DNA of 64,000 bases, taken from positions 34,516-98,515 of IMG/VR virus record IMGVR_UViG_3300028327_000833. One strand, written 5' to 3'. Every line of letters starts with the position of its first letter. Within the stretch, counting starts at the first letter, position 1. The translations under genes were made by a program, and so were the position numbers. Of this stretch, positions 4,542-49,957 are shown one piece after another. The notes under the pieces are model-generated. The model worked only from the letters and a program-made list of their open reading frames with translations. It ran no database searches and was not told where the DNA came from. Source of the stretch: a virus. Its lineage: Duplodnaviria > Heunggongvirae > Uroviricota > Caudoviricetes.

Positions 4542-5826
4542 GTATTTAATACATTTATAGGTTTTATTATCAAATATTGTTTTTTGTTATCAAATGTGTT
4601 ATCTTTGAGTTATGAAACTATCTAATTATGCTAAAAATCTCGGAATCTCTTAAAGGAACTTGAAAAATGAAGTTCAACAGAAGCGTCAAATGCCATTTCT
4701 CGAAGTGGATAACCGGAAGCAAGTCTGACCGTATAAAAGACTTGCTTTCTGAATATGACGCCGTAGCGACTTCGGCTATCGACGCTGTAAAAAGCCGTAT
4801 AGAAGACGGCGACTCTAAGTTCGACGTCTTTAAAAATTATAAAGTATCTGAAACGTGGCTGACAGCTAGAGCGAAACAAGTCGTTTTAGCTGAAACCTAC
4901 GGTATGGTAGACGGCCAGATTAAAAGTTGCAAAGAGTTAAAACAGCCGTATACGAAACCTAAACACTGCAAAACAAAAGCCGTTTTGTCGAGTCAGCTGG
5001 TATCTGTAAACCTTAACCCTGATTTAGAAGACTTTGATCTTCTAGTAGAGTTAAAATGTTTCGATAGCAGAAGGAAAGCGGTTAAAATAGCGATACCCTT
5101 GAAAAAGAACCGTTGTTTTGAAAAATGGAACTCTAAAGGCAAACTTTCAAGTTCCGTTATTTTAACGGATAAATATATCCAGTTTTCTTTTGAGGCTGAC
5201 GTCCCTAAGAAAACGGAAGGCGGCATTATAGGCTTAGACCCCGGAGCCACGAATCTTTTAACCTCTGACGAGGGCGTTGTTTACGGCGACCGGATAAAGC
5301 CGCTTTTACAGAAACTGAGACGTAAAAAACGCAATTCCAGATCTTGGAAGAAATGCAAAAAAGAAATTAAATACTATATCTCTAAAACATGTAAAGAGTT
5401 GCCTTTTAAGGAGACTAAATTAATTTGTATTGAAAATAACAGGGGTATTAAAAGGAACAGCAAAGTTAAAGGACGCTTAACTAAAAGTATGCGTTCAGTT
5501 CTCGACGGCTGGACAAGCGGGTTGCTGGACAGCAGGGTAGAAATGCTCTCGGAGGAAAACGGTGTTTCCCTCAGACGGGTGCCTGCTTTCCACAACTCCA
5601 CTACTTGTCCGGTCTGTGGTCACGTCGAGAAGGGGAACCGGTTAAGTCAAGAGGCGTTCAGGTGTCTGTCTTGTGACTATGCAGACAAAGCCGATACGGT
5701 CGGCGCCTTGAACACCCTTGGCCGCTTCTCCCTCGGAAAATATGGTTCCGGGTTCAAAACCGATTTTGTTAAAAAACATGGAGGCTACTATGCCTGCAAG
5801 ATTTGATAATAAAAGAGGTAACTATG
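4542..5826 (+). mobile_element. IS607-family derivative, copy 1 (tnpA deleted, tnpB intact)
   Basis: conserved left end GTATTTAATACATTTATAGGTTTTATTATC... and right end ...GCCTGCAAGATTTGATAATAAAAGAGGTAACTATG shared with copies at 7900 and 29279; 13-aa TnpA remnant MKLSNYAKNLGIS* at 4612-4653. Confidence 0.7.
4667..5806 (+). CDS. tnpB: TnpB (IS605 OrfB-family RuvC-like RNA-guided nuclease), 379 aa
   Basis: RuvC-I GLDPGATN, RuvC-II LICIENN, Zn finger CPVCGH...CLSC, RuvC-III YADKADTVGALN. Confidence 0.85.
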   Translation: MKFNRSVKCHFSKWITGSKSDRIKDLLSEYDAVATSAIDAVKSRIEDGDSKFDVFKNYKVSETWLTARAKQVVLAETYGMVDGQIKSCKELKQPYTKPKHCKTKAVLSSQLVSVNLNPDLEDFDLLVELKCFDSRRKAVKIAIPLKKNRCFEKWNSKGKLSSSVILTDKYIQFSFEADVPKKTEGGIIGLDPGATNLLTSDEGVVYGDRIKPLLQKLRRKKRNSRSWKKCKKEIKYYISKTCKELPFKETKLICIENNRGIKRNSKVKGRLTKSMRSVLDGWTSGLLDSRVEMLSEENGVSLRRVPAFHNSTTCPVCGHVEKGNRLSQEAFRCLSCDYADKADTVGALNTLGRFSLGKYGSGFKTDFVKKHGGYYACKI

Positions 5827-5843
5827 CTCAAATTTTACGTGAA

Positions 5844-6680
5844 ATGGGCATTTCAGAGGTATCCGCGGATGTACCGTTCACGCAAGCTAACGCCTATACG
5901 CTCGCAATGTGTATGGATAGGGTTAAGAGATCCGCGGACGCCGACCCGAAGAACGTGCATCTACGCCCGGATTGCATTGATTTAATGGCGGCCTTTTTTG
6001 ACGTAAATCCGAACCGTTATCTGGTGTCGCATCAATACGTTCAAAAAAGCCCTAGCCCCGTCTATGCCCGCAAAGGCGGCAAGCTTGCAAGTTACGAGTC
6101 CGCTCCTATAACTACGTATGGGGTCAGTCTCAAACACGCTAAAGATGTAACCGATTGTTTGGCGCGGCAGTACGGGCATTCAGGTTTTCAGCGGCAACTC
6201 GCAGACGACTCCGCAATGGAACTTGTCTACGCTTGCGCCGGTCTTGAATATAAAGTTGTTGTAGACGAGATGGTAAAGACAAGTCATGCGCGTAAAGAAC
6301 CCAAATCTAATCATCTCGCCTATGCGTTAGGCAGCGTAGACGCCGAATTTTTGCGCGCAGGCAGGGTTACTGCGAACCGTTACGTTATAAACCCCGGTTC
6401 CTTGCAACACTTCCTATCTTTACCGGGATTTGTTTTAAATACCGTGAGGTTCGGTTATGTTAAATGCGGAGAGTTTTTAAAACGCCCGGTGCTCGTTTCC
6501 GAGCACGTTCCTGAAGACGAAATCATCTGCACCTGCGCAGATACGGCAAGCCCGTTCGGATACCCGATTATCGTATCCTACGAGTGTCCTTTGACAGCGA
6601 CGGACTGCGGACATACCGCGATAGCTTGCGGTGTAAAAGTAGCGTTACCGGAACTCATTCAGAAAGTCGTGCTGAAATGA
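5844..6680 (+). CDS. hypothetical protein (start chosen after IS right end; track ORF 5718-6680 reads through IS end)
   Basis: long ORF; N-terminal extension MPARFDNKRGNY is encoded by the IS right end and is therefore not native. Confidence 0.4.
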   Translation: MGISEVSADVPFTQANAYTLAMCMDRVKRSADADPKNVHLRPDCIDLMAAFFDVNPNRYLVSHQYVQKSPSPVYARKGGKLASYESAPITTYGVSLKHAKDVTDCLARQYGHSGFQRQLADDSAMELVYACAGLEYKVVVDEMVKTSHARKEPKSNHLAYALGSVDAEFLRAGRVTANRYVINPGSLQHFLSLPGFVLNTVRFGYVKCGEFLKRPVLVSEHVPEDEIICTCADTASPFGYPIIVSYECPLTATDCGHTAIACGVKVALPELIQKVVLK

Positions 6681-7899: not shown

Positions 7900-9184
7900 G
7901 TATTTAATGCATTTATAGGTTTTATTATCAAATATTGTTTTTTGTTATCGAATGTGTTAGCTTTGAGTTATGAAACTATACAGTCGGGCTAAAATTTTTA
8001 GACTCTCTTAAAGGAACTTGAAAAATGAAGTTCAACAGAAGCGTCAAATGTCATTTCTCGAAGTGGATAACCGGAAGCAAGTCTGACCGTATAAAAGACT
8101 TGCTTTCTGAGTATGACGCCGTAGCGACTTCGGCTATCGACGCTGTAAAAAACCGTATAGAAGACGGCGACACGAAGTTCGACGTCTTTAAAAATTACAA
8201 AGTACCGGAAACGTGGCTGACAGCTAGAGCGAAACAAGTCGTTTTAGCTGAAACCTACGGTATGGTAGACGGCCAGATTAAAAGTTGCAAAGAGTTAAAA
8301 CAGCCGTATACGAAACCTAAACACTGCAAAACAAAAGCCGTTTTGTCGAGTCAGCTGTTGTCTGTAAATCTTAACCCTCAATTAGAAGCGTTCGATCTTC
8401 TAGTGGAGTTAAAATGTTTCGATAGCAGACAGCGGGCGGTTAAAATAGCGGTACCTTTGAAAAAGAACCGCTGTTTTGAAAAATGGAACACTAAAGGCAA
8501 ACTCTCAAGTTCCGTTATTTTAACAGACAAATACATCCAGTTTTCTTTTGAGGCTGACGTCCCTAAGAAAACGGAAGGTGATATTATAGGTTTAGACCCC
8601 GGAGCCACGAACCTTTTAACCTCTGACGAGGGCGTTGTTTACGGCGACCTGATAAAGCCGCTTTTACAGAAACTGAAACGGAAAAAACGCAACTCAAGGT
8701 CGTGGAAAAAGTGTAAAAAAGAAATTAAATATTACGTCTCTAAAACATGTAAAGAATTGCCTTTTAAGGAGACTAAATTAATCTGTATTGAAAATAACAA
8801 GGGTATTAAACGGAACAGCAAAGTTAAAGGGCGCTTAACTAAAAATATGCGTTCAGTTCTCGACGGCTGGACAAGCGGGTTGCTGGACAGCAGGGTAGAA
8901 ATGCTTGCTGAAGAAAACGGTGTTTCCTTACGGCGGGTACCTGCTTTCCACAACTCTACTACTTGTCCGGTCTGCGGTCACGTTGAGAAGGGGAACCGGT
9001 TAAGTCAAGAGGCGTTCAGGTGTCTGTCTTGTGGCTATGCAGACAAAGCCGATATGGTCGGCGCCTTGAACACCCTTGGCCGCTTCTCCCTCGGAAAATA
9101 TGGTTCCGGGTTCAAAACCGATTTTGTTAAAAAACATGGAGGCTACTATGCCTGCAAGATTTGATAATAAAAGAGGTAACTATG
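7900..9184 (+). mobile_element. IS607-family derivative, copy 2 (tnpA deleted, tnpB intact)
   Basis: same ends and same tnpA deletion junction (..CTCTTAAAGGAACTTGAAAAATG) as copy 1. Confidence 0.7.
8025..9164 (+). CDS. tnpB: TnpB, 379 aa
   Basis: about 95% aa identity to 4667-5806; all RuvC and Zn-finger motifs intact. Confidence 0.85.
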   Translation: MKFNRSVKCHFSKWITGSKSDRIKDLLSEYDAVATSAIDAVKNRIEDGDTKFDVFKNYKVPETWLTARAKQVVLAETYGMVDGQIKSCKELKQPYTKPKHCKTKAVLSSQLLSVNLNPQLEAFDLLVELKCFDSRQRAVKIAVPLKKNRCFEKWNTKGKLSSSVILTDKYIQFSFEADVPKKTEGDIIGLDPGATNLLTSDEGVVYGDLIKPLLQKLKRKKRNSRSWKKCKKEIKYYVSKTCKELPFKETKLICIENNKGIKRNSKVKGRLTKNMRSVLDGWTSGLLDSRVEMLAEENGVSLRRVPAFHNSTTCPVCGHVEKGNRLSQEAFRCLSCGYADKADMVGALNTLGRFSLGKYGSGFKTDFVKKHGGYYACKI

Positions 9185-9188
9185 GCGA

Positions 9189-9238
9189 GGAGTTTATATG
9201 AAAACCACTGAAGACGCAAGTTTAGAGCTAGAATTCGC
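9189..9238 (+). repeat. 50-bp near-identical (48/50) duplicate of the 5' end of gene 10329-10646, immediately after the IS copy-2 right end
   Basis: GGAGTTTATATGAAAACCACTGAAGACGCAAGTTTAGAGCTAGAATTCGC vs 10320-10369. Confidence 0.8.
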
Positions 9239-23549: not shown

Positions 23550-23606
23550 TTTAATCCAGGTGCGGCGGTATGCCTGAGAGGGGCGGCGGCGTTGAAAAAA
23601 TCGAAT

Positions 23607-24491
23607 ATGTCCGTTAGCGAAGACAAGAGTCTGGCGCTCTATTTCAAGGAGATAGGGGGCATTCAGCCGCTCACCTCCGAGCGCGAGGCGGAACTGGCCG
23701 CCAAAATCAAGCGCGGCGACCGTAAAGCCGTGCACGCGCTTGTAAAGGCCAACTTGCGCTTCGCGGTCAGCGTGGCCCGCAACTATCAGAATCAGGGGCT
23801 TTCCCTTAGCGATCTGATAAACGAAGGGAATATAGGGCTCGTCAAGGCGGCCGAACGGTTCGACGGAACGAAGAACTTCCGCTTCATTTCCTACGCCGTA
23901 TGGTGGATCAGGCAGACCATTCTGCAGGCGCTGGCGGATCATTCGCGGGGTATGCGTCTGCCGCTTAACCGCGTCGGGGCGATACATAAGATAAATAAGG
24001 CGCAAATCGACCTTGAACAACGTCTCAACCGTATGCCCGACACCGCCGAACTCGCCCGCGAACTGTCGATGACGGAGACCGGCGTCGCGGACGCGTTGGC
24101 GATGGCGGACAGCTGCAGTTCGCTCGACGCGCCTATGGCCGACGGCGGCTCCCCGCATATAAGCGGACTGGCGGACATATCGGCCGTCAACGGGCCGGAC
24201 GAGATACAGGCGAAATCCACGCACGAAGAACTCGAACGGATACTTGAGTGCCTGTCCGACCGCGAGCGGGAAGTCGTCAAAATGTCGTACGGCGTAGACT
24301 GCGACGCGGGTTACACTTTGGAAGAGATAGGGCGTAAATTGAAACTTACGCGGGAGCGGGTGCGGCAGATAAAAGACAAGGCGATGCGTCAGTTAAGGAG
24401 CTCTCAGGGCGTGGATCAGCCGGTGCGCAAGCGGAGGCCTAAAGCGGGTTCGCGCGACAGATCGTGCAATGCGTCGAAAGGCAAGGTCTGA
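23607..24491 (+). CDS. RNA polymerase sigma factor, sigma-70 family
   Basis: region 2 FRFISYAVWWIRQTI; region 4.2 HTH TLEEIGRKLKLTRERVRQIKDKAMRQLR. Confidence 0.8.
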   Translation: MSVSEDKSLALYFKEIGGIQPLTSEREAELAAKIKRGDRKAVHALVKANLRFAVSVARNYQNQGLSLSDLINEGNIGLVKAAERFDGTKNFRFISYAVWWIRQTILQALADHSRGMRLPLNRVGAIHKINKAQIDLEQRLNRMPDTAELARELSMTETGVADALAMADSCSSLDAPMADGGSPHISGLADISAVNGPDEIQAKSTHEELERILECLSDREREVVKMSYGVDCDAGYTLEEIGRKLKLTRERVRQIKDKAMRQLRSSQGVDQPVRKRRPKAGSRDRSCNASKGKV

Positions 24492-28221: not shown

Positions 28222-29295
28222 ATGTCACAAGTACAAGTAGATACGACGCCGCTGACCGAAGCCCAGCAAAAACGCTTAAAAAAACTTCTGAAAAAAGAGG
28301 CGCAGATAGAAGCGGAGCATAAGGAGTTGATCGAGTTGAAGTACGCCGACCCTGAGTTTTGGCGGCGGTCGCACGACCCCAAGCGATGGACGGTAACGGC
28401 TAAAGAGCGCTGGAAAAGCCGCGCCGAAAGGTGGCTGGAGGCTCCGGCGGACTATCGCCGTCAGGTGACCCGCAACGTTTCTTTGGGGGAGGTAGGAAAG
28501 AAGGCGCGAGTCAGTTGCGAAATTGTCGTGCCGTCGGTTAAAATCTACGAATACTTAAAAAGCAAAGCAAATTTACCCGAAACCGCCAGCGCGTCGAGTA
28601 AAGCCTACGAATACCCAAAAAGCGGAGCAGATTTACCTGAAATCGCCATCGCGCAGACGGTGCTGTCTATAGAGGCCGCCATAGAACGCAATTTTTTAGA
28701 TTGTAATTATACGGCGGTCTTTGCAATTCCAGAAGACCACATCAAATTCTGCATAACGCACGGATTTCTGTGGAGAGCCCCGTTTGCGAATCTCGAAGCG
28801 GCGGATTATATCTGCGGTCTCATACGCGAAGCCAACGTAGGTCATACTTTGCAAGTTGAGGAGTATATCGACGAAGCCGAGATCAAGAGCGCACGGTTGG
28901 CGGAGGCGGCAGCCGACCCTTCCCGCGCGATTAAATTCGTTAATGTGACTGTGACCGAAGAGCGCGAGTTCGTCATACCGACAGCTAAGATAAACCAATA
29001 CCTGAAAAAAATGCTGAAGTTTCCTGACGACGAAATCTCTGCGACGGTGACGGCGATCAGCAAGATAATAAAACAGGCGAACAAGAACGACGCTTCCGAC
29101 ATTCTTGTCATACCTTGGGTGTTGATTAAGGGTTGCTTAATGGGGAAAACTGGGCGCACGGATTACCAGTCGCAGCTGCTTATAGACGCCCTCTATTCTT
29201 TCTTCAAAGACGCCAACTACGGCAAGGTGTCTGCGAATGAAGGCGAAATCGTAGACGATTACGAGTTGCCGAGGCCGGTATTTAATACTTTATAG
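28222..29295 (+). CDS. hypothetical protein (357 aa) with internal 60-bp imperfect tandem repeat (28537-28656)
   Basis: KIYEYLKSKANLPETASAS / KAYEYPKSGADLPEIAIAQ; C-terminal codons and stop supplied by IS left end. Confidence 0.45.
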   Translation: MSQVQVDTTPLTEAQQKRLKKLLKKEAQIEAEHKELIELKYADPEFWRRSHDPKRWTVTAKERWKSRAERWLEAPADYRRQVTRNVSLGEVGKKARVSCEIVVPSVKIYEYLKSKANLPETASASSKAYEYPKSGADLPEIAIAQTVLSIEAAIERNFLDCNYTAVFAIPEDHIKFCITHGFLWRAPFANLEAADYICGLIREANVGHTLQVEEYIDEAEIKSARLAEAAADPSRAIKFVNVTVTEEREFVIPTAKINQYLKKMLKFPDDEISATVTAISKIIKQANKNDASDILVIPWVLIKGCLMGKTGRTDYQSQLLIDALYSFFKDANYGKVSANEGEIVDDYELPRPVFNTL

Positions 29296-29346
29296 GTTTT
29301 ATTATCAAATATTGTTTTTTGTTATCAAATGTGTTATCTTTGAGTT

Positions 29347-29904
29347 ATGAAACTATCTAATTATGCTAAAAATCTCGGAATCTCTTATTTGACCGCGTAC
29401 AGGCACTACAAAGCAAATAAGATTAAAGGCGCTTATCAGCTAGAGTCTGGGACAGTAATTGTTCCAGACTTAAATTCCGTAAGTAAACCTGACTATACTG
29501 TTATTTACAGCAGAGTCAGTTCGTCTGAAAATAAAAGCAACCTGGAGAGCCAGGCAGAGAGGCTTATGCAATTCTGTAATGCAAAAGGGTGGGTTGTTAA
29601 AGAAGTTATAAAAGAATGCGCATCAAGGTTAAACGATAACCGCCCTAAATTATTGAAGTTATTTAAGGAGAGGCGGGCAACTAGACTCGTGGTGGAGCAT
29701 AAAGACCGCCTAACCAGGTTTGGATTTAATTACATAAAAGAACTTTATAACGAGTGTGAAATTGTAATTTTAAATGAAGCTGAAAATCGAAATGATTTAA
29801 TGCAAGACTTTGTTTCGTTAGTAACCTCTTTTTGCGCTATGTTATATGGACAACGAAGGACAAAACGACAGACAGAAAAGTTAATCAAGGAACTTGAAAA
29901 ATGA
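29347..29904 (+). CDS. tnpA: IS607-family TnpA, serine recombinase with N-terminal MerR-like HTH
   Basis: catalytic serine motif VIYSRVSSSENKSNLESQ; 185 aa. Confidence 0.8.
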   Translation: MKLSNYAKNLGISYLTAYRHYKANKIKGAYQLESGTVIVPDLNSVSKPDYTVIYSRVSSSENKSNLESQAERLMQFCNAKGWVVKEVIKECASRLNDNRPKLLKLFKERRATRLVVEHKDRLTRFGFNYIKELYNECEIVILNEAENRNDLMQDFVSLVTSFCAMLYGQRRTKRQTEKLIKELEK

Positions 29905-31040
29905 AGTTCAACAGAAGCGTCAAATGCCACTTCTCGAAGTGGATAACCGGAAGCAAGTCCGGCCGTATAAAAGACTTGCTTTCTGAGTATGACGCCGTAG
30001 CGACTTCGGCTATAGACGGTATAAAAAACCGCATAGAAGACGGCGACTCTAAGTTCGACGTCTTTAAAAATTACAAAGTACCGGAAACGTGGCTGACGGC
30101 CAGAGCGAAACAAGTCGTTTTAGCCGAAACCTACGGCGTGGTAGACGGCCAGATTAAAAGTTGCAAAGAGTTAAAACAGCCGTATACGAAACCTAAACAC
30201 TGCAAAACAAAAGCCGTTTTGTCGAGTCAGCTGGTATCTGTAAACCTTAACCCTGATTTAGAAGACTTTGATCTTCTAGTAGAGTTAAAATGTTTCGACA
30301 GCAGAAGGAAAGCGGTTAAAATAGCGATACCCTTGAAAAAGAACCGTTGTTTTGAAAAATGGAACACTAAAGGCAAACTTTCAAGTTCCGTTATTTTAAC
30401 GGATAAATATATCCAGTTTTCGTTTGAGGCTGATGTCCCTAAGAAAACGGAAGGTGGCATTCTAGGCTTAGACCCCGGAGCCACGAATCTTTTAACATCA
30501 GACGAGGGCGTTGTTTACGGCGACCGTATAAAGCCGCTTTTACAGAAACTTAAACGTAAAAAACGCAACTCAAGGTCGTGGAAAAAATGTAAAAAAGAGA
30601 TTAAATATTACATTTCTAAAACATGTAAAGAGTTGCCTTTTAAAGAAACTAAATTAATCTGTATTGAAAATAACAAGGATATTAAAAGAAACAGCAAAGT
30701 TAAAGGACGCTTAACTAAAAATATGCGTTCAGTTCTCGACGGCTGGACAAGCGGGTTGCTGGACAGCAGGGTAGAAATGCTCTCAGAGGAAAACGGTGTT
30801 TCCCTCAGACGAGTGCCTGCTTTCCACAACTCCACTACTTGTCCGGTCTGCGGTCACGTCGAGAAGGGGAACCGGTTAAGTCAAGAGGCGTTCAGGTGTC
30901 TGTCTTGTGGCTATGCAGACAAAGCCGATATGGTCGGCGCTTTAAACGTCCTTGGCCGCTTCTCCCTCGGAAAATATGGTTCCGGGTTCAAAACCGAGTT
31001 TGTTAAAAAACATGCAGGTTATTACGCCTGCAAGATTTGA
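29901..31040 (+). CDS. tnpB: TnpB, 379 aa
   Basis: GLDPGATN, LICIENN, CPVCGH..CLSCGY, ADKADMVGALN. Confidence 0.85.
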   Translation: MKFNRSVKCHFSKWITGSKSGRIKDLLSEYDAVATSAIDGIKNRIEDGDSKFDVFKNYKVPETWLTARAKQVVLAETYGVVDGQIKSCKELKQPYTKPKHCKTKAVLSSQLVSVNLNPDLEDFDLLVELKCFDSRRKAVKIAIPLKKNRCFEKWNTKGKLSSSVILTDKYIQFSFEADVPKKTEGGILGLDPGATNLLTSDEGVVYGDRIKPLLQKLKRKKRNSRSWKKCKKEIKYYISKTCKELPFKETKLICIENNKDIKRNSKVKGRLTKNMRSVLDGWTSGLLDSRVEMLSEENGVSLRRVPAFHNSTTCPVCGHVEKGNRLSQEAFRCLSCGYADKADMVGALNVLGRFSLGKYGSGFKTEFVKKHAGYYACKI

Positions 31041-31057
31041 TAATAAAAGAGGTAACT

Positions 31058-31498
31058 ATGTACATAATGCTGTCGATTCATCCGCAGTACGCCGAAAAAA
31101 TTCTCGACGGGACGAAGCTGTGGGAATACCGCAAAACCTTGCCGACAACGCATCTCCTCGACGTAACGGGAGTTGTGGTGTACGCCACAGCGCCCGTGTC
31201 GAGAATTGTCGGCGAGTTCGAAACGGATTTGACGAAGACGCGTACGGCGTCCCCGTGCAAGCTGTGGCATGAAACGGACGGCGAACGAGACGGAGGCATC
31301 ACCAAAGAAGCCTTCGACAAATATTTCGAGGGGCACGACTACGGGTACGCGATCCCGGTCTTGCTGTATTCGGGCGGAAGTTCCGCCGTAAGATACGACG
31401 TCCCTCGGAGGCTCGCGGATTTCGGATTGAAAAAGCCGCCGCAAGGGTTCGCATATTTGAAGAAATATAACGGCTTAAAAACAATAGGCGCGGAATAA
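31058..31498 (+). CDS. ASCH/PUA-like domain protein; start ATG and RBS supplied by IS right end
   Basis: MLSIHPQYAEKILDGTKLWEYRKT resembles the ASCH N-terminus. Confidence 0.45.
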   Translation: MYIMLSIHPQYAEKILDGTKLWEYRKTLPTTHLLDVTGVVVYATAPVSRIVGEFETDLTKTRTASPCKLWHETDGERDGGITKEAFDKYFEGHDYGYAIPVLLYSGGSSAVRYDVPRRLADFGLKKPPQGFAYLKKYNGLKTIGAE

Positions 31499-32475: not shown

Positions 32476-32640
32476 GTGATTGAAGAGCTGAGCAAAAGTT
32501 GTCCGAATCACGTGAAGAACGAAATTAACGCGACGTTTGCCAAGAACGTAGTGAATCCTGACTTTACGGATAACTGCAACAAGCTGGCGAAACAAGCGGC
32601 AGGCAGAGTCAAACAACCTAAAGGCGAAGGACGGCTATGA
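32476..32640 (+). CDS. small hypothetical protein (GTG start)
   Basis: GGGGGA RBS; overlaps pncB start by ATGA. Confidence 0.3.
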   Translation: MIEELSKSCPNHVKNEINATFAKNVVNPDFTDNCNKLAKQAAGRVKQPKGEGRL

Positions 32641-33845
32641 TTATCACATCGCTGTTAGACTGCGATCTGTACAAATTTAGCATGGGAGCCGCGTATTTTG
32701 ACGGGTTTGCCAATACTACTGCGCGGTTTGTGTTCAAAGACCGTACTAATAAAATCCCAGTTACCGAGTTATTTATCGAAAGGCTCGGGCGCGAGGTCGA
32801 TTCGTTATGCAAGTTGAAATTCAGTACCGAAGAGTTAGATTATCTTTTCGGACTTAGATTTATGAAAGATAAGGTCGGGTATAGGGAATATTTGCGGAAC
32901 TTCCGACTCAATCCCGATTGGATTCATATTTACGGAGTAAATGACGGCGGCAAACTTGCGGCGGTAGAGATTCATACAGCAGAAGCCCCGCTGATAGCCG
33001 TCAGTATGTTTGAAATTTATATCCTTGCAATCGTGAACGAGTTGTATTGCCAGGATAACAACGTGTACCCTCCTCGGTATGAGCGCCAACTTGCGGAGGA
33101 CACTGCGAAGCGGTTTGATGCGCTCGAATGCCCTTTCATCGAAATGGGTACGCGAAGGCGAATATCGGGAAGTTTTCAAGATAAACTAATTGGCGAGTTA
33201 AAAAAGAATTCTAAATTTCTGGGGACAAGCAATGTTTATCTTGCGATGAAGCACGGCGTAACCCCAAGCGGGACGCAAGCTCACGAGTATTTGTGTACCG
33301 GGCAAGGACTTCCTCATGTGCCCGTAGCCGACAGTCAGCGGTATATGTTCGATTTCTGGGCGCGACACTTCAACGGGGACTTGGGCATAGCCTTGTCGGA
33401 TAATCTAGGCACGGACAAGTTTTTGGAAGACTTCACTTGCTACTATGCCAAACTGTTCGACGGTGTCAGACATGACTCAGGTGACCCGTTCGTATGGGGC
33501 GAGCAGATGATTAAAATGTACGAGGGTTACGGGATCGACCCGAAATCCAAAAAATTGGTATTCAGCGACAGTCTATCTCTGGAAAAGGCCAACGCTATCT
33601 ACCGCAAATTTAAGGATAGAGTCAAAGTTGTAGCTGGAATCGGGACGGCGTTGACGAATCCGATCAAGGATAAGGCGACCAATATCGTGATGAAGATGGT
33701 CAGTTGCAACGGGCGGCCTGTGGCTAAGTTATCAAACAACCCAGGCAAACAAATGTGCGAGAATGCCGATTATGTGCGTTATTTGAAACAGGTGGTTAAG
33801 TTCAATGACAGCTACGAACTGTCCGAAGAGGATGGCTGGGAATAA
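32637..33845 (+). CDS. pncB: nicotinate phosphoribosyltransferase (PncB)
   Basis: blocks GTRRRISGSF, GTSNVYLAMKHGVTPSGTQAHE, LGIALSD, GVRHDSGDPFVWGE, LVFSDSL, GIGTALTN, NIVMKMVSCNGRPVAKLSNNPGK align to E. coli PncB. Confidence 0.85.
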   Translation: MIITSLLDCDLYKFSMGAAYFDGFANTTARFVFKDRTNKIPVTELFIERLGREVDSLCKLKFSTEELDYLFGLRFMKDKVGYREYLRNFRLNPDWIHIYGVNDGGKLAAVEIHTAEAPLIAVSMFEIYILAIVNELYCQDNNVYPPRYERQLAEDTAKRFDALECPFIEMGTRRRISGSFQDKLIGELKKNSKFLGTSNVYLAMKHGVTPSGTQAHEYLCTGQGLPHVPVADSQRYMFDFWARHFNGDLGIALSDNLGTDKFLEDFTCYYAKLFDGVRHDSGDPFVWGEQMIKMYEGYGIDPKSKKLVFSDSLSLEKANAIYRKFKDRVKVVAGIGTALTNPIKDKATNIVMKMVSCNGRPVAKLSNNPGKQMCENADYVRYLKQVVKFNDSYELSEEDGWE

Positions 33846-33947
33846 ACTTTTAACCTTCTAAGGAGGGCGTTATGAGTGAACATAAGAAGCCTGGCGAGGT
33901 TCTTACTGAAGCCGAGGCGGGTTTTATCAGCGCAACGGAGGGAAAAA

Positions 33948-34835
33948 ATGTATACTTACAAGTTTGATGTAGAGAAAGTGACGAAAGATTGCGTCGCGTG
34001 GATAAAAAGATGGTTTGCCGAGAATGGCGGCGAGAGACCTGCCGCGATTGTCGGCGTCAGTGGAGGCAAGGACAGCGCGGTCGTCGCGGCATTGTGCGCC
34101 GAAGCTCTCGGCAAGGACAACGTTATAGCGGTGCTGATGCCGAACGGCGAGCAAAAGGACATTGCGGATTCCTGGAAAATTATATATCACATAGGTTTGA
34201 AGAGAATTATCCTCTCTAACATCAGCGACACTGTCAATGGGCTATTCGCTAATTGCGGTGTTGTTGAAGATTGTGTTAAGTACAACCTAAACCAACGGTT
34301 TTGGTATCCAGAAACAGCAAGCATTGCTTGGAACAATCAAGCCGCGGTAAACGCACCTGCGCGGATTCGGATGGCTACGCTGTACGCGATGGCGGCTCAA
34401 TACGGCGGTCGGGTGGCGAACACCTGCAACCGCAGCGAGGATGTGTGCGGGTACGCGACCCTCTACGGCGATTCGGCTGGCGACTTCAGTCCGCTGTCCA
34501 AGCTAACTGTGACGGAAGTCATCGCAATCGGCGAATACTTGGGTTTGCCACAAGAGATTACTCGTAAGACTCCGAGCGACGGCCTGTGCGGGAAGTCGGA
34601 TGAGGAATCTTTGGGCATGAAGTACGCCGAACTCGATGAGTGGCTCCGCGAAAGTAAGCGCGAGAGTACTATCGGCATCAAAGTCTGGGATATGTGGATG
34701 AGCCGCGGAAGGTTCAAACTATCTCTGATAAATCTACCGTCTTTCGACCCCGACCTTTATGACAGGATAGAAGATGTGGATTATGAGCGCAATCAACCAA
34801 GAGGCGAAGTAAGACTCATAAAGAGTATGCCTTGA
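33948..34835 (+). CDS. nadE: NH3-dependent NAD+ synthetase (NadE)
   Basis: PP-loop VGVSGGKDSAV; RBS ACGGAGGG before ATG 33948. Confidence 0.85.
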   Translation: MYTYKFDVEKVTKDCVAWIKRWFAENGGERPAAIVGVSGGKDSAVVAALCAEALGKDNVIAVLMPNGEQKDIADSWKIIYHIGLKRIILSNISDTVNGLFANCGVVEDCVKYNLNQRFWYPETASIAWNNQAAVNAPARIRMATLYAMAAQYGGRVANTCNRSEDVCGYATLYGDSAGDFSPLSKLTVTEVIAIGEYLGLPQEITRKTPSDGLCGKSDEESLGMKYAELDEWLRESKRESTIGIKVWDMWMSRGRFKLSLINLPSFDPDLYDRIEDVDYERNQPRGEVRLIKSMP

Positions 34836-35388
34836 TATGCCTGAATACTATTGCAATAAGCTGGCGGAGCAGGCGGCGAGCAGGATTAAGCCGGAAAAGT
34901 CGACGGCGAGGAATTACCGTGCTCTTGCGTAGTTAAGGGGTACGATAACGCTATCATAATCAAGTGGTAATACCGGAGGTGTAGAATGGAATGGAACCTT
35001 ACGCTCGACGGCGGTCAGTTGAATTTCCTGCACGATCTTGTAGCGGAGTACATGAAACAAGCGGAAAAACCGTCTTTAGCGAGCGTCTACCCGACAGGCA
35101 TCGCGCTTGAAGTCTATGACGCATTACAGGGAGCGTTGCCTAAAGAAAGGACGGCATAATGTCGGAAGAGCGCACCGTCTATCGCTGTCTGCACGAAACG
35201 GCGGGTCAGAACCAATGCCCTACCCTCGGCATGGCTAAAAACGACATCTATTGCAGATACGCCTGTTACGTCTGCAAAGACGAAGTCGCCGTGGATAAAA
35301 AATTCAAATGTCCGTTGGAAGCTAAATGAGCTATACGCTACGTTGATACTGTTTATAAACGAAGCTTTATGCGACGAGGAGGATATAG

Positions 35389-36504
35389 ATGCTGAATAGA
35401 GACCTTTCAGTTGTCATAGGACGGTTTCAGCCGTTGACGTCTGGACACACTGCGCTTATCAACGAAGCCCTTGACAGCCACTCCGACCTGCTCGTGATAG
35501 TCGGCGGGGCGAATGTCAGCCGAAGCATCAAGAATCCGTTTACGGCGTCCGAGCGAGTCGATATGCTCCGCAACTACTTTCAAGGCGGCTATCTGTCCGA
35601 GCGGAAATATGCTAATCCGATTATGGTTACTATAGCCTGTGTCGACGACTCAGATTACGACTCCGAATGGTGGGAGATTGCCGTAAGGGAATGCGTGTCG
35701 AAAGTCGCAGACGGACGCCGCGTTACCCACTACGGGCACAAGCGGGACGCTTCCTCATATTACATGGGCGATGCGCTCGTAGGAATCGCTGAGTATAAAG
35801 AGATTGAAGCCCTCGCGAAGAACATCAGCGCGACGAAAGTACGCAAAGCGTTATTTGAATGCGATGACGGAACTGTGAAAATTTATACGCCTTCTTGCGT
35901 ATCCTCGTTTTTGCGCGAATTCGTGGAATCGCGAGAGTACACTCATTTGACTGCGCAATATACGCGGATTCAGGAATACAAGGAAAAATGGAAATCCGCG
36001 CCGTACCCTCCAACCTTCGTAACAGTGGACGCTACAGTGTTCTGGTGCAAGACACTCGGCGATCACGACGGATGCCAAACGGAGACTCGAGTCTTGCTGA
36101 TTAGGCGACGGGACAACGGCTTATGGGCTGTCCCCGGCGGCTTCCTTAACCCTGACGAGCCGCTTAATAAAGCTGTGTGCAGAGAGTTATTCGAAGAGAC
36201 TAGAATCGATCTTGACGCAAAAAACGCCAACGTGTGTAGCGTTTTCGACGATCCTGACAGGGACTTGCGCGGACGTATTATAACCTACAACTACGCGTGG
36301 GTTTTCAACGGTCGTTGGTTAGCGGATCCAATCGCCTCAGATGACGCAATACAAGCGAAGTGGGTTCCGCTGGAATGGGTACGTCAAAATCCGACGCAAT
36401 TTTACGCCGACCACTTTAAAATGCTGAACGTTATGGCGCAAAAAGCGGGGGTGCTGGAACCGAGAGTACCTTGCGTTCTGATGCAAGAAATTAATCTTAA
36501 CTGA
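35389..36504 (+). CDS. bifunctional NMN/NaMN adenylyltransferase (NadM-type) with C-terminal Nudix hydrolase domain
   Basis: VVIGRFQPLTSGH (HxGH-type); Nudix box GGFLNPDEPLNKAVCRELFEETRI. Confidence 0.8.
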   Translation: MLNRDLSVVIGRFQPLTSGHTALINEALDSHSDLLVIVGGANVSRSIKNPFTASERVDMLRNYFQGGYLSERKYANPIMVTIACVDDSDYDSEWWEIAVRECVSKVADGRRVTHYGHKRDASSYYMGDALVGIAEYKEIEALAKNISATKVRKALFECDDGTVKIYTPSCVSSFLREFVESREYTHLTAQYTRIQEYKEKWKSAPYPPTFVTVDATVFWCKTLGDHDGCQTETRVLLIRRRDNGLWAVPGGFLNPDEPLNKAVCRELFEETRIDLDAKNANVCSVFDDPDRDLRGRIITYNYAWVFNGRWLADPIASDDAIQAKWVPLEWVRQNPTQFYADHFKMLNVMAQKAGVLEPRVPCVLMQEINLN

Positions 36505-42356: not shown

Positions 42357-42428
42357 CGCGGGGTACAGTAGGAGTTACTGACGAGGCCCATAACCTCGGA
42401 CACGCAGGTGCAAATCCTGCCCCCGCTA
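42357..42428 (+). tRNA. tRNA-Met/Ile2 (anticodon CAT); position 1-72 is a C-U mismatch
   Basis: hand-folded cloverleaf: D stem CAGT/ACTG, anticodon stem CGAGG/CCTCG, loop CCCATAA, T arm GCAGG-TGCAAAT-CCTGC, acceptor CGCGGGG/CCCCGCT. Confidence 0.55.
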
Positions 42429-42435
42429 ATTACAT

Positions 42436-42510
42436 ATCGGCGCGGCTCAATAGGTTTAGAGCGCTACCTTGCCGAGGTAGATGTTGCGGGTTCGAGACCC
42501 GCTATCGGTT
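42436..42510 (+). tRNA. tRNA-Gly(GCC)-like with weak acceptor stem (3 G-U pairs, 1 mismatch)
   Basis: D arm GCTC-AATAGGTTTA-GAGC, anticodon arm CTACC-TTGCCGA-GGTAG, T arm GCGGG-TTCGAGA-CCCGC. Confidence 0.4.
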
Positions 42511-42530
42511 CCGCGATAAAGGAGGACGCT

Positions 42531-42761
42531 ATGAAAGACAAAGGAAATTGGGACTACGACCATCGGGAAGAATTCAGGACGAAAGGCCACGTCCCGTACT
42601 CTATGCTCGACAGAAGCCATACGAGCAGTTCCAAGTGGGCGCAGGATAGGCGTCAGCATAGTTCGTCCGAAGCCCGCAGACGATATAAGTCGTCTGCGAA
42701 CAAGCATACGCGGCAGTATCTAAACAAGCGAATGGAAGAGGCGATTCAAGATGATAATTAA
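42531..42761 (+). CDS. hypothetical protein (76 aa)
   Basis: AAAGGAGG RBS; the longer track ORF overlaps the tRNAs. Confidence 0.35.
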   Translation: MKDKGNWDYDHREEFRTKGHVPYSMLDRSHTSSSKWAQDRRQHSSSEARRRYKSSANKHTRQYLNKRMEEAIQDDN

Positions 42762-43215
42762 AGCCGAGATAAACGTTCCCGATAAAATCAAGGGCAAGTG
42801 TTATAATAACGACGACCACCCGGAAAGACCGAGCGAACATTGCGACTGGCTTGAAACATGTTTAGACGGAGGAAACTTTTGCATAGTTTTTGAGCAGGAC
42901 GTGAACGCCGCTATGGATAAATGCGAGAAGTGCGAAACGCAATGCAGATCGCAGGAGGCCGCGGCATCCGACGAATTCGCCTTGGACGCTCTCGGAAACC
43001 ATGTGAGGGTCGGCGACTACGTCATACATCAGTGGCGGCTAAGGAAATCAAAGTGGTACCACGGCAAAACCCTAATGTTGCAGTCGAAAGTGGCGGAGGT
43101 GTACCCTGACCGGCGGCGAATACGTGTCGCGGCGTACCAATCGCTAATAGCGTGGGACAGAGAGAACAGCCCCGACACTATGGTTATCAGGCATTTCGTT
43201 CTTTTAAAGAAATGA
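42751..43215 (+). CDS. hypothetical Cys-rich protein (154 aa)
   Basis: ORF. Confidence 0.4.
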   Translation: MIIKAEINVPDKIKGKCYNNDDHPERPSEHCDWLETCLDGGNFCIVFEQDVNAAMDKCEKCETQCRSQEAAASDEFALDALGNHVRVGDYVIHQWRLRKSKWYHGKTLMLQSKVAEVYPDRRRIRVAAYQSLIAWDRENSPDTMVIRHFVLLKK

Positions 43216-43220
43216 TTTTT

Positions 43221-43302
43221 GGCGGGGTAGACTAACGGCAAGTCAGCGGCCTCGAATGCCGCCGGCCTCACGGCCTTCTGGGTTCAAATCCTAGTCCCGC
43301 CG
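43221..43302 (+). tRNA. tRNA-Ser (anticodon CGA), long variable arm
   Basis: acceptor GGCGGGG/TCCCGCC, anticodon arm GCGGC-CTCGAAT-GCCGC, variable hairpin GGCC-TCAC-GGCC, T arm CTGGG-TTCAAAT-CCTAG. Confidence 0.6.
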
Positions 43303-43308
43303 AGTTTA

Positions 43309-43395
43309 GGAGGAGCGCGTTGACTGTAAGCAACCTGCTTTGAAAGTAGGCGATGCCTTGAAATAGGCGTCGGGAGTTCAAATCTCTCCTCCGTT
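43309..43395 (+). tRNA. tRNA-like (anticodon arm CCTGC-TTTGAAA-GTAGG = UGA, long variable arm, T arm GGGAG-TTCAAAT-CTCTC); acceptor pairing not resolved by eye
   Basis: partial cloverleaf only. Confidence 0.3.
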
Positions 43396-43405
43396 ATCAG
43401 GCATA

Positions 43406-43441
43406 AATATTTTTCGGTGTCGAAAGGCGTACTGTAGTAGG
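43406..43441 (+). promoter_or_regulatory. conserved intergenic motif copy 7, followed by nested hairpins 43441-43495
   Basis: core at 43427-43440. Confidence 0.55.
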
Positions 43442-43511
43442 ACACGCGCCCGTAACTCAGTCGGGAGACTTCCGCCCTTTCGGAGCGCGTCTAACCATCT
43501 GGGAGGCTGTC

Positions 43512-43850
43512 ATGGATGTTGCAGGAACTCTTTCGGTTCAGTCGGCGATAGCCGCCGTTTTGATGATAGCCGCGCTCGCGATGCTTTCGGCGGTGACGGT
43601 TCTCGACCTCTACGTGTGCAGCGGAATGCGCGACTTCCTGCATGACGCGCGGGAATACCTGTCAGCCGCCACCGGAGCGTGGAAAAGAGCCCTAGAGCTA
43701 AGAGCGGACATAGAGGTGAAACTGATGGGATTCGCCGACGGCTCCGCCGAAACGCCGCCGCGCGTCTCCGGCGCGGCAACGGAAGACGCCGAAATTTGCG
43801 GCGAAAATACGGCGAAGCCTTCGGCGGACGGCGCAGGCCGAGCCGGTTAG
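43512..43850 (+). CDS. hypothetical protein (112 aa), N-terminal hydrophobic
   Basis: ORF. Confidence 0.35.
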   Translation: MDVAGTLSVQSAIAAVLMIAALAMLSAVTVLDLYVCSGMRDFLHDAREYLSAATGAWKRALELRADIEVKLMGFADGSAETPPRVSGAATEDAEICGENTAKPSADGAGRAG

Positions 43851-43990
43851 AGGCCGCGAAGGATTCGGTAATCAAAGGAGGCTATATGCGTAAGGCGATG
43901 CTATGGGCGGTCAACGCGGTTATCCGAAAACTATATGCCGTTCAGCGTCTTCTGTGGTTCTCGCTGTACGGACGGAAGAACTGAGGAGGG

Positions 43991-44455
43991 TTGAAAATGC
44001 GCGACATATTGTCGCAAGACGAAATCGACGCGTTGCTTAACGGGTTGGGCTGTCAGGACGTTATTTTTTCCAAACCTAACGATTGGAGGGACTGTATGGG
44101 GTACGGACGCGATACAACCAACTGTTCGGAGTGCGCCGTAAATATCAACGGGATGTGTCACAGCGGTTATACCCGCAAAACCGTCATCGACGAGATTAAG
44201 CGCGGATGGAAACAGCTGGACGAGCACATTCCTGAAAATTTGAAGACCACGAAGTACGAAAAAATGATCCATTACTTTTTGGAAGTGATGGATTCCGTCG
44301 CTAAGAACGGCGTTCCGTTGCCGAAGTGCACTTTCAACAATTCGTGCTTTACGGCAAAACCGGATGCCTGCGGGGAGGGGCGCAAATCGGAGACGGATTG
44401 CGAAGACGGCCCCGGAGATATGTTGACCGCCCTATTCGGGGACGACGGTGATTAA
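43991..44455 (+). CDS. hypothetical Cys-rich protein (154 aa)
   Basis: ORF with GGAGGG RBS. Confidence 0.4.
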   Translation: MKMRDILSQDEIDALLNGLGCQDVIFSKPNDWRDCMGYGRDTTNCSECAVNINGMCHSGYTRKTVIDEIKRGWKQLDEHIPENLKTTKYEKMIHYFLEVMDSVAKNGVPLPKCTFNNSCFTAKPDACGEGRKSETDCEDGPGDMLTALFGDDGD

Positions 44456-44501
44456 GGAGACGAATCTTGCCCCGAATGCTTAACTGGTTTAGGAGGTTAA
44501 T

Positions 44502-45377
44502 TTGAGCAATGTACTGTCACAAGAGGAAGTAACCGCGCTGCTGAACGCTAAAGCCGACGGCAAACTCGCCGATTCTGCGGACAAGCCGAAGTACGACAGC
44601 AACGACAGCCCGATCGCGAGCTATATGACTTGCGGGCATATCGATAAGCTGTATGCGGAAGGAATCGCTGACGATAGGCGTTCCGAGCGCTATTCTAAAA
44701 AGCAGATAAGATTGTTTACAGAGTTGTTTGAAGACGTTGTCGAGAAGGTTTCAGGCGACTGTTCGGAGCACCTGAAAAAGAAATGCGAGCTGGAACTTGT
44801 ATCTGTAGACGAGCTTACGACAAGCGAGTATATCTGTTCAATGTCGAATCCGTGCTACGTGAAACTGTTCAAATTGCCGAAAGCCGCGGATCGCGGGATC
44901 TTTGAAATGTCGCCGCATTATTTAAAGATGTTCGGCGCTCCTGACGACGCGAAAGACATCGACTGGAAGCCGCAGCCTCCGACCGTAGAGGAAAAACGAA
45001 TCGGCGAATATTTCGGCAAATGTCTTTTTACGAGAATTGCCGAGGCGTTTAATACCGTGTCGAGAATAAAGTTCGAGTATGCCGACAAATACACCGTCAC
45101 ATCGCCGCTACGGATTGACGCCGAGTCAGTGACGCCTAACGTGTTATTAGTCTGCATAGAGGCGAGAATGTCTTACGGAAGCGGATTGGTGTCGCTCGCG
45201 TTTCCACAATCGTATGTGAATTTTTTACTGCTGACGCAGAATCTTAAAAAGACGTCGGACTGCGTTAGGGACAATTTCAACAAAAACTGCATGTGCTGTA
45301 AACTGTTGCAGGATTATCTGAGAAATAACTTCGAGGATTTAAGAAAGATAGAGAAGGAATATTACTACGAGTCATAG
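44502..45377 (+). CDS. hypothetical protein (291 aa), TTG start
   Basis: AGGAGG RBS before TTG. Confidence 0.4.
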   Translation: MSNVLSQEEVTALLNAKADGKLADSADKPKYDSNDSPIASYMTCGHIDKLYAEGIADDRRSERYSKKQIRLFTELFEDVVEKVSGDCSEHLKKKCELELVSVDELTTSEYICSMSNPCYVKLFKLPKAADRGIFEMSPHYLKMFGAPDDAKDIDWKPQPPTVEEKRIGEYFGKCLFTRIAEAFNTVSRIKFEYADKYTVTSPLRIDAESVTPNVLLVCIEARMSYGSGLVSLAFPQSYVNFLLLTQNLKKTSDCVRDNFNKNCMCCKLLQDYLRNNFEDLRKIEKEYYYES

Positions 45378-45447
45378 CCCTGTTAAGCAAATCGACTTGA
45401 TTTTTCAGACTGCGAAATGAAAAAAAAAACGGAAAGAGATATATCTT

Positions 45448-45867
45448 ATGACGGCTTATCAAAAAACATATTTTTGGCGGCATGACAATCCCGTGTGGAC
45501 AGAATGTTATGCTCACGGAGATATACCGACCACAGCCGAGATTTATAACTGGGAGCCGGTAGGGCCTAAAACCGTCGGTCTTAACGGAAAAGAATATTAC
45601 GTCGAAAGCAGTTTTCCGGGATATTTGTACTCTCCGCCGGTAAATTCGCTGGTAAATTTTTATTTTAATCCGTCAAATAGAACAATAGCTCTGAACTGGT
45701 CGTTTTCTTACGGCATCGTTCAGAAGTCTGTCGAATTCAAAGCCGTAGACAAAACGCGGCTTCCGTCGGGCTGTCCCGAATTCAGCGAGGACTCGCTGTA
45801 TTTTATAATCTCTGATAAAGGCGGTTTAAGCGTAATAGCGGTGCAACTCTGTTCGCCTGACGAGTAG
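45448..45867 (+). CDS. hypothetical protein (139 aa)
   Basis: ORF. Confidence 0.4.
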   Translation: MTAYQKTYFWRHDNPVWTECYAHGDIPTTAEIYNWEPVGPKTVGLNGKEYYVESSFPGYLYSPPVNSLVNFYFNPSNRTIALNWSFSYGIVQKSVEFKAVDKTRLPSGCPEFSEDSLYFIISDKGGLSVIAVQLCSPDE

Positions 45868-46189: not shown

Positions 46190-46217
46190 TACAGCGCCTC
46201 GTCAGTCTAATTGATTT

Positions 46218-49951: not shown

Positions 49952-49957
49952 TTTTCT

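Follow-up and report, generated by a model that had tools for sequence, protein, structure and literature searches.

Diverged copies of an IS607-family TnpA/TnpB/omega-RNA transposon in a large, probably viral genome

Organization of the transposon copies

The window analyzed in this work, i.e., a 64,000-nucleotide (nt) stretch of the IMG/VR virus record IMGVR_UViG_3300028327_000833 (positions 34,516 to 98,515), contains three open reading frames (ORFs) encoding 379-amino acid (aa) TnpB nucleases and one ORF encoding a 185-aa TnpA recombinase, all on the + strand. A tblastn search of the window with copy 3 returned exactly three TnpB genes and one full TnpA gene, as well as the first 13 tnpA codons, which are all that is left of this gene in copies 1 and 2. 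ORF calling and tblastn thus agree with the first-pass annotation of this DNA, made from its letters without database searches, in which three elements with an intact TnpB, only one of them with TnpA, were proposed. The elements are well-delimited copies of an IS607-family TnpA/TnpB/omega-RNA transposon, present in the window as one autonomous copy (copy 3) and two deletion derivatives (copies 1 and 2; Table 1).

Copy 3 is composed, in order, of a G of the left flank (29278), the core TA (29279-29280), the left end, tnpA, tnpB, and a right end finishing with ..AACTA (31058), after which there is a conserved T (31059). Copies 1 and 2 correspond to copy 3 devoid of positions 29388-29886, with an identical junction in both; in copy 1 the 13 remaining tnpA codons (4612-4650) are followed by a stop codon. 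The same junction indicates that the tnpA-less derivative arose once and was later mobilized or copied to a second site, so that the two truncated copies do not represent separate losses of tnpA and go back to one common deletion. As noted before, the ends are conserved: a 111-nt left end and a stretch of about 1174 nt, which begins 14 nt ahead of tnpB and extends as far as the right end, are common to the copies, and the most diverged left end is that of copy 2 (86% identity to copy 3). The G+C content of the elements is 40-41% (39.8% for copy 3), as compared with 51-52% in the replicon around them.

Table 1. Features of the three transposon copies in the 64-kb window.
Feature	Position	Strand	Basis or remark
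Copy 1, tnpA-deleted, non-autonomous	4542..5825	+	limits of copy-to-copy similarity; deletion junction the same as in copy 2
Copy 2, tnpA-deleted, non-autonomous	7900..9183	+	limits of copy-to-copy similarity
Copy 3, autonomous element	29278..31059	+	limits of copy-to-copy similarity
tnpA, IS607-type serine recombinase, 185 aa	29347..29904	+	NF033518, PF00239
tnpB copy 1 (379 aa)	4667..5806	+	ORF call, PF07282
tnpB copy 2 (379 aa)	8025..9164	+	ORF call, PF07282
tnpB copy 3 (379 aa)	29901..31040	+	PF07282, invariant motifs, model, Foldseek
Left-end subterminal repeats TTATCAAAT x2 (candidate TnpA binding sites)	29302..29330; same pair 4567-4595, 7925-7953	+
Right-end inverted TTATCAAAT	31035..31043; same at 5801-5809, 9159-9167	-	overlies tnpB stop codon
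Predicted omega-RNA scaffold copy 1	5632..5824	+	33/36 pairs form; coordinates from alignment A4
Predicted omega-RNA scaffold copy 2	8990..9182	+	33/36 pairs form
Predicted omega-RNA scaffold copy 3	30866..31058	+	31/36 pairs form; RNAalifold and pair counts
Copy 3 helices H1, H2	30866-74/30957-65; 30890-96/30941-47	+
Copy 3 helices H3, H4, H5	30897-902/30916-21; 30966-72/30981-86; 30993-31000/31046-53	+
Predicted TAM copy 3, GGTA	29277..29280	+	-3 G and TA core in all six independent left junctions; analogy with Cbo IS607 (TGGG vs right end UCGG)
Predicted guide-encoding flank copy 1 (TGCTCAAATTTTACGTGAAA)	5825..5844	+	directly 3' of right-end terminus
Predicted guide-encoding flank copy 2 (TGGCGAGGAGTTTATATGAA)	9183..9202	+	directly 3' of right-end terminus
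Predicted guide-encoding flank copy 3 (TGTACATAATGCTGTCGATT)	31059..31078	+	directly 3' of conserved right-end terminus

TnpA and TnpB proteins

TnpA matches the NCBIfam model NF033518 'IS607 family transposase' with 161.4 bits (cut-off 110) over model positions 2-187 of 187, and this score above a curated cut-off bears out the IS607-family assignment made earlier. Its Resolvase domain (PF00239, E = 4e-15) covers residues 52-178 of 185, with the DNA-binding region placed N-terminally to this catalytic domain, and the tnpA and tnpB genes overlap by 4 nt (ATGA). The two ends of the element are mutually unrelated in sequence and without terminal inverted repeats. The motif TTATCAAAT is found twice, 20 nt apart, in every left end, and once, in inverted orientation, in every right end, where it covers the stop codon of tnpB. 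Of the 11 exact copies of the motif in the 64 kb, eight are located within the three elements. This pattern fits the subterminal TnpA-binding repeats described for IS607-family ends, and we regard these repeats as candidate TnpA binding sites.

No match to a group I intron or to any other Rfam family was found within 29100-31300 at E <= 1, and none in the window at the gathering score; moreover, the left end leaves only 69 nt before tnpA. An IStron (an IS607 or IS605 element combined with a group I intron) was ruled out, as there is no Intron_gpI match.

All three TnpB proteins match Pfam PF07282 (Cas12f1-like TNB domain) with scores of 41-47 against a cut-off of 26.3. Across 48 homologs (32-96% identity), the D-E-D triad (D191, E256, D343) and the zinc finger (C314/C317/C333/C336) are invariant, and an AlphaFold model of the copy-3 TnpB, built from the alignment of these homologs, reached a predicted local distance difference test (pLDDT) value of 89.3. 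In Foldseek searches this model matched AsCas12f (E = 6e-17), ISFba1 TnpB (E = 1e-13), and ISDra2 TnpB (E = 7e-12), and the matches, among them mimivirus Fanzor2, span the whole TnpB length, with E-values ranging from 6e-17 to 9e-11; by sequence, matches to PDB entries are confined to the C-terminal third. The intact RuvC (D-E-D) and zinc-finger (CxxC..CxxC) motifs reported at first are thereby corroborated, and the membership of the protein in the TnpB family rests on its predicted fold and motifs.

Two other kinds of TnpB-like systems were also considered. TldR proteins, i.e., nuclease-dead TnpB-like repressors, were ruled out by the invariant intact triad and the presence of element ends and TnpA. 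Type V CRISPR-Cas systems (Cas12f, Cas12j) were rejected because there is no CRISPR array beside the elements, the only tandem repeats nearby being the 20-nt repeats of the left ends.

A covarying RNA at the 3' end of tnpB

For the analysis of the omega-RNA, the last 220 nt up to the core were aligned for 52 unique relatives, of which 44 were taken from IMG/VR loci, two from metagenome loci, and the others from the window and its sister contigs. RNAalifold revealed four helices in this alignment, with compensatory changes at 21 of 28 pairs. An all-against-all screen of column pairs allowing G-U turned out to be too noisy, and a helix-based screen of stacked pairs was used instead; it added a fifth helix, in which the segment just after helix 4 pairs with the bases just before AAC-NN. 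The five helices comprise 36 pairs, with 91.1% of the cells paired across the relatives as compared with 72.5% in column shuffles (0/500 reach the observed value), and the pairing falls to 39-53% when the partner strand is slid by one to three columns. Similarly, the covariation score of 0.548 drops to 0.225 in shuffles (0/500) and to 0.08-0.19 after sliding, and double changes occur at 29 of the 36 pairs.

The structure ends exactly at the right end of the element. It overlaps the last ~175 nt of tnpB and the 18 nt beyond its stop codon, which gives a scaffold of about 193 nt in each copy of the window. An omega-RNA had been expected across the tnpB 3' end and the right end, and it is there that the five covarying helices of the 52 relatives are situated; the strong covariation supports the identification of this structured RNA as the omega-RNA. 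The predicted RNA has no matching Rfam family.

Helix 4 (30966-30986, 5732-5752, and 9090-9110 in the window), paired in 99.4% of cells, has both of its strands within the coding sequence. The codon in its 3' strand changes the encoded amino acid (R, C, G, Q, E), and the 5' strand changes synonymously in step. The variable residue follows a conserved Y-G-(S/A), and its partner is the third base of a Thr or Leu codon. Changes of the amino acid with the pairing kept are a clear sign of selection on the RNA, and at this helix the RNA pairing steers the evolution of the protein.

A solitary 127-nt right-end fragment, 97% identical to the right end of copy 3, was identified in reverse orientation on the related contig L002 (6012-6138, - strand). 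It is a remnant retaining helices 4-5 only and not a complete omega-RNA gene.

Element ends, core dinucleotide, and predicted guides

The element boundaries were established with independent junctions (six left and four right) from the window and the related contigs L001, L002, and L003. All six left junctions read N-G-TA-TTTAAT.., and at the four right junctions ..GGTAAC-TA-T precedes G, G, G or A. The A belongs to the fourth independent right-end junction (L002, position 291; ..AACTAT|A), which means that the final G of '..AACTATG' is flanking DNA, outside of the element. The first-pass annotation had placed the guides immediately 3' of the right end; with the boundary corrected in this way its guides are 2 nt out of register, and the start of the predicted guides moves 2 nt to the left.

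Across the family, the right end has the form AAC-NN-T, where NN is GG in 43, TA in 7, and GA in 2 of the 52 unique relatives; T follows the core in 50 of the 52, in a search that did not impose it. In every lineage examined, the left flank has a core matching that of the right end: it reads GGG|T in L004, L005, L006, L008, and L046, and G-TA|T at the six independent junctions of the TA element and apparently also in L010, L039, and L071. Every copy of the TA element has TA and then T at both junctions, and most relatives have GG and then T. Additional right-end variants were observed in L037 (..AACGA|T), L075 (..TTTACTG|T), and L062 (..CAACTG|T), i.e., GA and TG, and their occurrence beside GG and TA suggests that the core dinucleotide is evolvable in this lineage.

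In the clostridial IS607 element studied experimentally, the core is GG, the TnpA target and the transposon-adjacent motif (TAM) of TnpB are both TGGG, and the scaffold ends with UCGG, so that the G at position -3 separates the TAM from the right end (bioRxiv 10.1101/2023.11.20.567912). By analogy, the crossover core of the elements described here is predicted to be TA rather than the GG usual in the family, from which a TAM of N-G-T-A is predicted, and the right end A-C-T-A, with C and not G at -3, is predicted to be immune to cutting. The guides are predicted to start at the T right after ..AACTA (TGCTCAAA.., TGGCGAGG.., and TGTACATA..), which gives TGCTCAAATTTTACGTG for copy 1, TGGCGAGGAGTTTATAT for copy 2, and TGTACATAATGCTGTCG for copy 3, where the first T may be either a scaffold or a guide base. 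The search for guide matches suggested earlier was run on the window and L001-L003, and each guide fits its own flank only, with no second match; for the copy-3 guide, no other match was found in the window at <=3 mismatches in 16 nt. This is what a role in retention or homing predicts, and it lends no support to retargeting.

It is also worth mentioning that an ATG is located within 10 nt of the core in three of the six left flanks (window 4531-4544, L001:9865-9878, and L002:9263-9276), two of which read ATGTA|T. An extended target or TAM preference may account for this, or else a bias of landing toward gene starts, and six sites are too few to tell.

Divergence, selection, and recombination among copies

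Pairwise comparison of the three tnpB genes gave 59-82 differences in 1140 nt (92.8-94.8% identity), and that of their products 17-20 in 379 residues (94.7-95.5% identity). The ratio of nonsynonymous to synonymous divergence (dN/dS, Nei-Gojobori) amounts to 0.098-0.118, with dS of 0.19-0.29, and no frameshift or stop was found in any of the eight full-length 379-aa members of the protein cluster to which they belong. These values (dN/dS 0.10-0.12) indicate that the tnpB copies are under purifying selection, as had been argued before. The lack of a conserved omega-RNA structure, mutated RuvC residues, and a dN/dS of about 1 had been named as findings that would speak against the first-pass annotation, and the analysis yielded none of the three.

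The identity between the copies of the window is patchy, which points to gene conversion; a similar patch was seen in the tnpB of copy 3 in L076. Furthermore, comparison of window positions 4542-7897 with contigs L001 and L002 revealed mosaic elements. In L002 (element at 9274-10558), the 5' ~400 nt, encoding the N-terminus of P0097 of the source contig, carry 36 differences from copy 1, and identity to the window is complete over the 3' 880 nt of the element and the 2,071 nt after it. In L001 (9876-11160), the element consists of the 5' ~1000 nt of the copy P0098 and the 3' 285 nt of copy 1, and its downstream flank is again the same as in the window. On the upstream side, neither contig has a flank related to window positions 1-4541. 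Such joins may have resulted from recombination between copies, rearranging the genome, or from an assembler joining copies at shared stretches; some other contigs break inside the element, which leaves room for recombination and assembly chimera alike.

Because of this patchiness and mosaicism, the ~93% identity of the copies is not read as a sign of undisturbed old age alone. The earlier statement that they reflect long-term maintenance and not recent hopping stands insofar as the copies are old (dS ~0.2-0.3), and has to be restricted insofar as they are mosaic and patchy, shaped in part by gene conversion or recombination.

Copy number and distribution of relatives

The three TnpB proteins of the window fall into one 90% identity cluster of nine members, with six full-length members and one 105-aa fragment originating from a single 204,996-bp JGI contig and the other two from ENA contigs. 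Judging from these proteins, at least six full copies are present in the source genome, in addition to one fragment. Relatives were identified at 67 loci on IMG/VR viral contigs, many of them of 60-420 kb; an IS607-type tnpA is located upstream at about half of these loci, and several contigs harbor two copies. In IMG/VR loci L004-L070, the gene downstream of the element is co-oriented with it at 26 loci, opposed at 11, and unclear at 10.

Beyond viral contigs, relatives were searched for in 185,579 species-representative genomes (GTDB), and none was found in two scans with just 1 and 2 peptide patterns; with so few patterns this absence is suggestive, and a virus-restricted distribution is so far hypothetical. 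The tblastn search of TnpB against 50,697 GenBank phage records gave nothing at E <= 1e-10, megablast of the element against GenBank phages gave no match, and a peptide scan of IMG/VR with a single protein gave no close relative, whereas a scan of metagenomes returned one contig only, of 1956 bp. The elements form a new, divergent, apparently phage-borne branch of a known transposon family and not a new kind of system.

Proposed mechanism and alternative explanations

In our opinion, the best explanation of these elements, to which we assign a probability of about three in four, is that they are copies of a selfish IS607/OMEGA element kept by RNA-guided homing in a large, probably viral genome. 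The mechanism envisaged follows the published IS607/IS605 model. TnpA of copy 3 would bind the TTATCAAAT repeats, cut the element out in circular form, and insert it by crossover at the TA core, while copies 1 and 2, descending from the single tnpA-deleted derivative, would move only with TnpA supplied in trans. A double-stranded circle is the transposition intermediate of the IS607 family; indirect evidence for it here is the presence of the element at three sites of the window and of at least six full-length TnpBs and a fragment on the source contig. The omega-RNA, once transcribed and processed, would carry a 3' extension derived from the DNA just past the right end, which would serve as the guide. 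The TnpB-omega-RNA complex would then cut element-free copies of the locus, in which N-G-T-A is followed by a match to the guide, i.e., an excision scar or an empty allele in a co-infecting relative, and recombinational repair would copy the element back (homing or retention). The occupied site would be spared, having A-C-T-A, with C instead of G at -3, at the right end.

Several observations weigh against this explanation. The scores of TnpB lie under the curated NCBIfam cut-offs (76.8 vs 100 for NF040570 guided_TnpB and 15 vs 350 for NF038280 IS607_TnpB), which makes it a distant family member by sequence. The autonomous copy 3 shows two omega-RNA mismatches, in helices H2 and H5, that are missing from copies 1 and 2. 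The putative TAM lacks conservation at position -4, so that the motif may be only 3 nt long. A search of the protein collection yielded no empty-site allele of the copy-3 or the copy-1 locus: the two queries, i.e., the neighboring 357-aa ORF and the ORF following copy 1, retrieved nothing but themselves, and the insertion is present on all contigs recovered (for copy 3, all eight contigs encoding the 357-aa protein, five of which, from five samples, were read as DNA). In the populations sampled, the insertions therefore appear to be fixed, and it is on the comparison of copies that the exact boundaries, the TAM, and the presence of homing targets rest. Finally, no capsid, portal, terminase or tail protein was recognized by PHROGs or Pfam among the large ORFs of the window and of the L001 and L002 flanks.

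The first-pass annotation had also raised the possibility that the TnpB/omega-RNA system was co-opted, e.g., to cleave competitor genomes. We consider it unlikely that these units act as RNA-guided weapons of the phage against competing phages or host DNA, beyond the retention of the element itself, even though strong purifying selection acts on all copies, including the two unable to transpose alone, the family was found on viral contigs only, several large phage contigs have more than one copy, and phage homing endonucleases are known to double as interference weapons (PMC13565253). Every guide corresponds to the DNA beside its own right end and has no other match in the window and the related contigs, which gives no sign of co-option, and the ends, the candidate TnpA-binding repeats, and the autonomous copy are intact, as in a live transposon. 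Homing into element-free co-infecting relatives is a natural expectation of the selfish mechanism itself; this mechanism already predicts the cutting of such relatives, and from sequence alone the two readings cannot be separated.

An improbable alternative concerns the replicon: instead of a phage, it might be a plasmid, some other extrachromosomal element or a bacterial island, with ordinary IS607 copies residing in cellular DNA. The lack of recognized structural and packaging proteins mentioned above would be in line with this. However, the window encodes a helicase, three DNA methyltransferases, an NAD-dependent ligase, NAD-salvage enzymes, a Ro60/TROVE protein, a sigma-70-like factor, and five tRNAs, arranged in long co-directional blocks composed mostly of ORFs of no known function. 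Such a gene content is typical of large phages. Moreover, all 67 flanked relatives come from IMG/VR viral contigs, and none was detected in the two scans of 185,579 species genomes, made with few peptide patterns. Given the phage-like content, but no recognized hallmark gene, the viral assignment is only likely, and the host replicon is a probable jumbo phage; in the ligase, its identity to the nearest GenBank phages is just ~21-25%.

That the copies are decaying relics with nonfunctional tnpB and RNA, similar owing to recent duplication or gene conversion, is very improbable, since the loss of tnpA from two of the three copies and a homogenization of the copies by gene conversion, conceivable from the patchy identity and the mosaic elements of sister contigs, stand against the dS of 0.19-0.29, the dN/dS of ~0.1, the intact reading frames of all eight full-length members, the invariant catalytic and zinc-finger residues, and RNA helices kept in each copy (31-33 of 36 pairs).

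Within the preferred explanation, i.e., a selfish element kept by homing, a more far-reaching and rather speculative scenario may be outlined. The lineage could be essentially confined to large phages, in which it would persist as RNA-guided homing endonucleases ('non-restorative homing') with a core and TAM switched from GG to TA, its dispersed copies acting as portable homology that reshuffles the genome. The sister contigs in which the 5' part of one copy is fused with the 3' part of a different one, with entirely different upstream flanks, are consistent with the last element of this scenario.

Comparison with known systems

The elements resemble the known IS607 elements (IS607 of Helicobacter pylori and the IStron of Clostridium botulinum, Zedaveinyte et al.) in the serine-recombinase TnpA with an N-terminal DNA-binding domain, the overlapping tnpA/tnpB operon, the ends that are asymmetric and free of inverted repeats, a short core common to both junctions, the omega-RNA extending over the tnpB 3' end and stopping at the right end, and the C (right end) versus G (TAM, here the predicted one) at -3. 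They differ in the TA core (GG in the known elements), the predicted N-G-T-A TAM (TGGG), the very divergent TnpB scoring under the NCBIfam cut-offs, and the occurrence of the family on viral contigs only; unlike the C. botulinum IStron, they are also without a group I intron. In ISDra2 (IS200/IS605), the nuclease fold, the D-E-D triad, the guide taken (here by prediction) from the right-end flank, and the presumed cutting of the empty donor site are the same, but that element uses a Y1 HUH transposase acting on single strands and a TTGAT-like TAM, in contrast to the serine recombinase acting on double-stranded DNA and the G-containing predicted TAM of the elements described here.

Phage genomes are said to contain insertion sequences only rarely (PMC5584929). 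A pair of an IS607-type recombinase and TnpB (gp135/gp136) is likewise present in a large phage, Ma-LMM01 of Microcystis, which was described with a single such pair (PMC5584929), whereas the source genome analyzed here has at least six to seven copies, most of them tnpA-deleted. The elements are also similar to the Seg and Mob homing endonucleases of T4-like phages, as both are multi-copy selfish nuclease genes placed between phage genes and expected to spread among co-infecting relatives by break repair; Seg and Mob recognize their target by the protein alone, whereas here a guide RNA is predicted to do so and a transposase offers a route to new sites. The copy number is unusual for a phage, the TA core and the predicted N-G-T-A TAM are unusual as well, and the distribution is apparently viral.

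To our knowledge, homing driven by TnpB has been demonstrated to date in bacterial chromosomes and plasmids only. Between viruses that co-infect a cell, RNA-guided homing is so far a concept (reviewed in PMC13565253), for which a phage with six or seven diverged copies under selection would be a natural test system. The apparent switch of the core from GG to TA, with a matching change in the left flank, predicts a co-evolution of the target choice of TnpA and the TAM of TnpB. Furthermore, a small nuclease (379 aa) with a scaffold of ~190 nt and a predicted TAM that is not G-rich may be of interest for genome editing.

Insertion sites and neighboring genes

The insertion point of copy 3 precedes the stop codon of the upstream ORF by 8 nt, and the left end of this copy provides the last five codons and the stop of this ORF; at the same time copy 3 is located at the start of a PHROG_3136 gene. 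In the reconstructed empty site, ..CCGGTA|TGTACATAATGCTG.. (window 29278-29295 / 31059-31075), the upstream ORF would end with ..PVCT* and a TAATG stop/start overlap, and with copy 3 present it ends with ..PVFNTL* inside the left end. The right end of copy 3 contains AGAGG placed 7 nt before the in-frame ATG of the PHROG_3136 gene.

Copy 2 lies in an intergenic position, and copy 1 splits off the possible first four codons of the downstream gene, the native start of which is perhaps ATGGCGAAGTA, just left of the element (4531-4541 onward). In copies 1 and 2, but not in copy 3, the right end carries GGAGG-N5-ATG in another frame. In copy 1, this ATG (5790) opens a 296-aa ORF (MPARFDNKRGNY followed by AQILREMG.., window 5790-6680) that runs into the downstream gene, and public gene callers adopt it as the start (P0103); copy 1 may thus supply a new start to the gene that it truncated. 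The idea that 'GAGG..ATG' of the right end is a general, built-in start for downstream genes was rejected, as it is in frame in copy 3 only and the TG of the ATG is flank sequence.

As for tRNA genes, a tRNA-like flank in L074 was unconfirmed by ARAGORN, and a weak tRNA-like Rfam match in the window (46218-46290) was likewise uncalled by this tool. The tRNAs of the window (Met-CAT, Gly-GCC, Ser-CGA, Ile-TAT, and Arg-TCT) are grouped at 42357-49952, around the Ro60/TROVE-vWA gene (47707-49560). The NAD-salvage enzymes are encoded by nicotinamide phosphoribosyltransferase-like and NadR-like adenylyltransferase/NUDIX genes, the sigma-70-family factor was named from Pfam matches of the same gene in L076, and a weak protein-kinase-like ORF is also present (window 32637-36504, 23592-24491, and 13414-15222 for all of these together).

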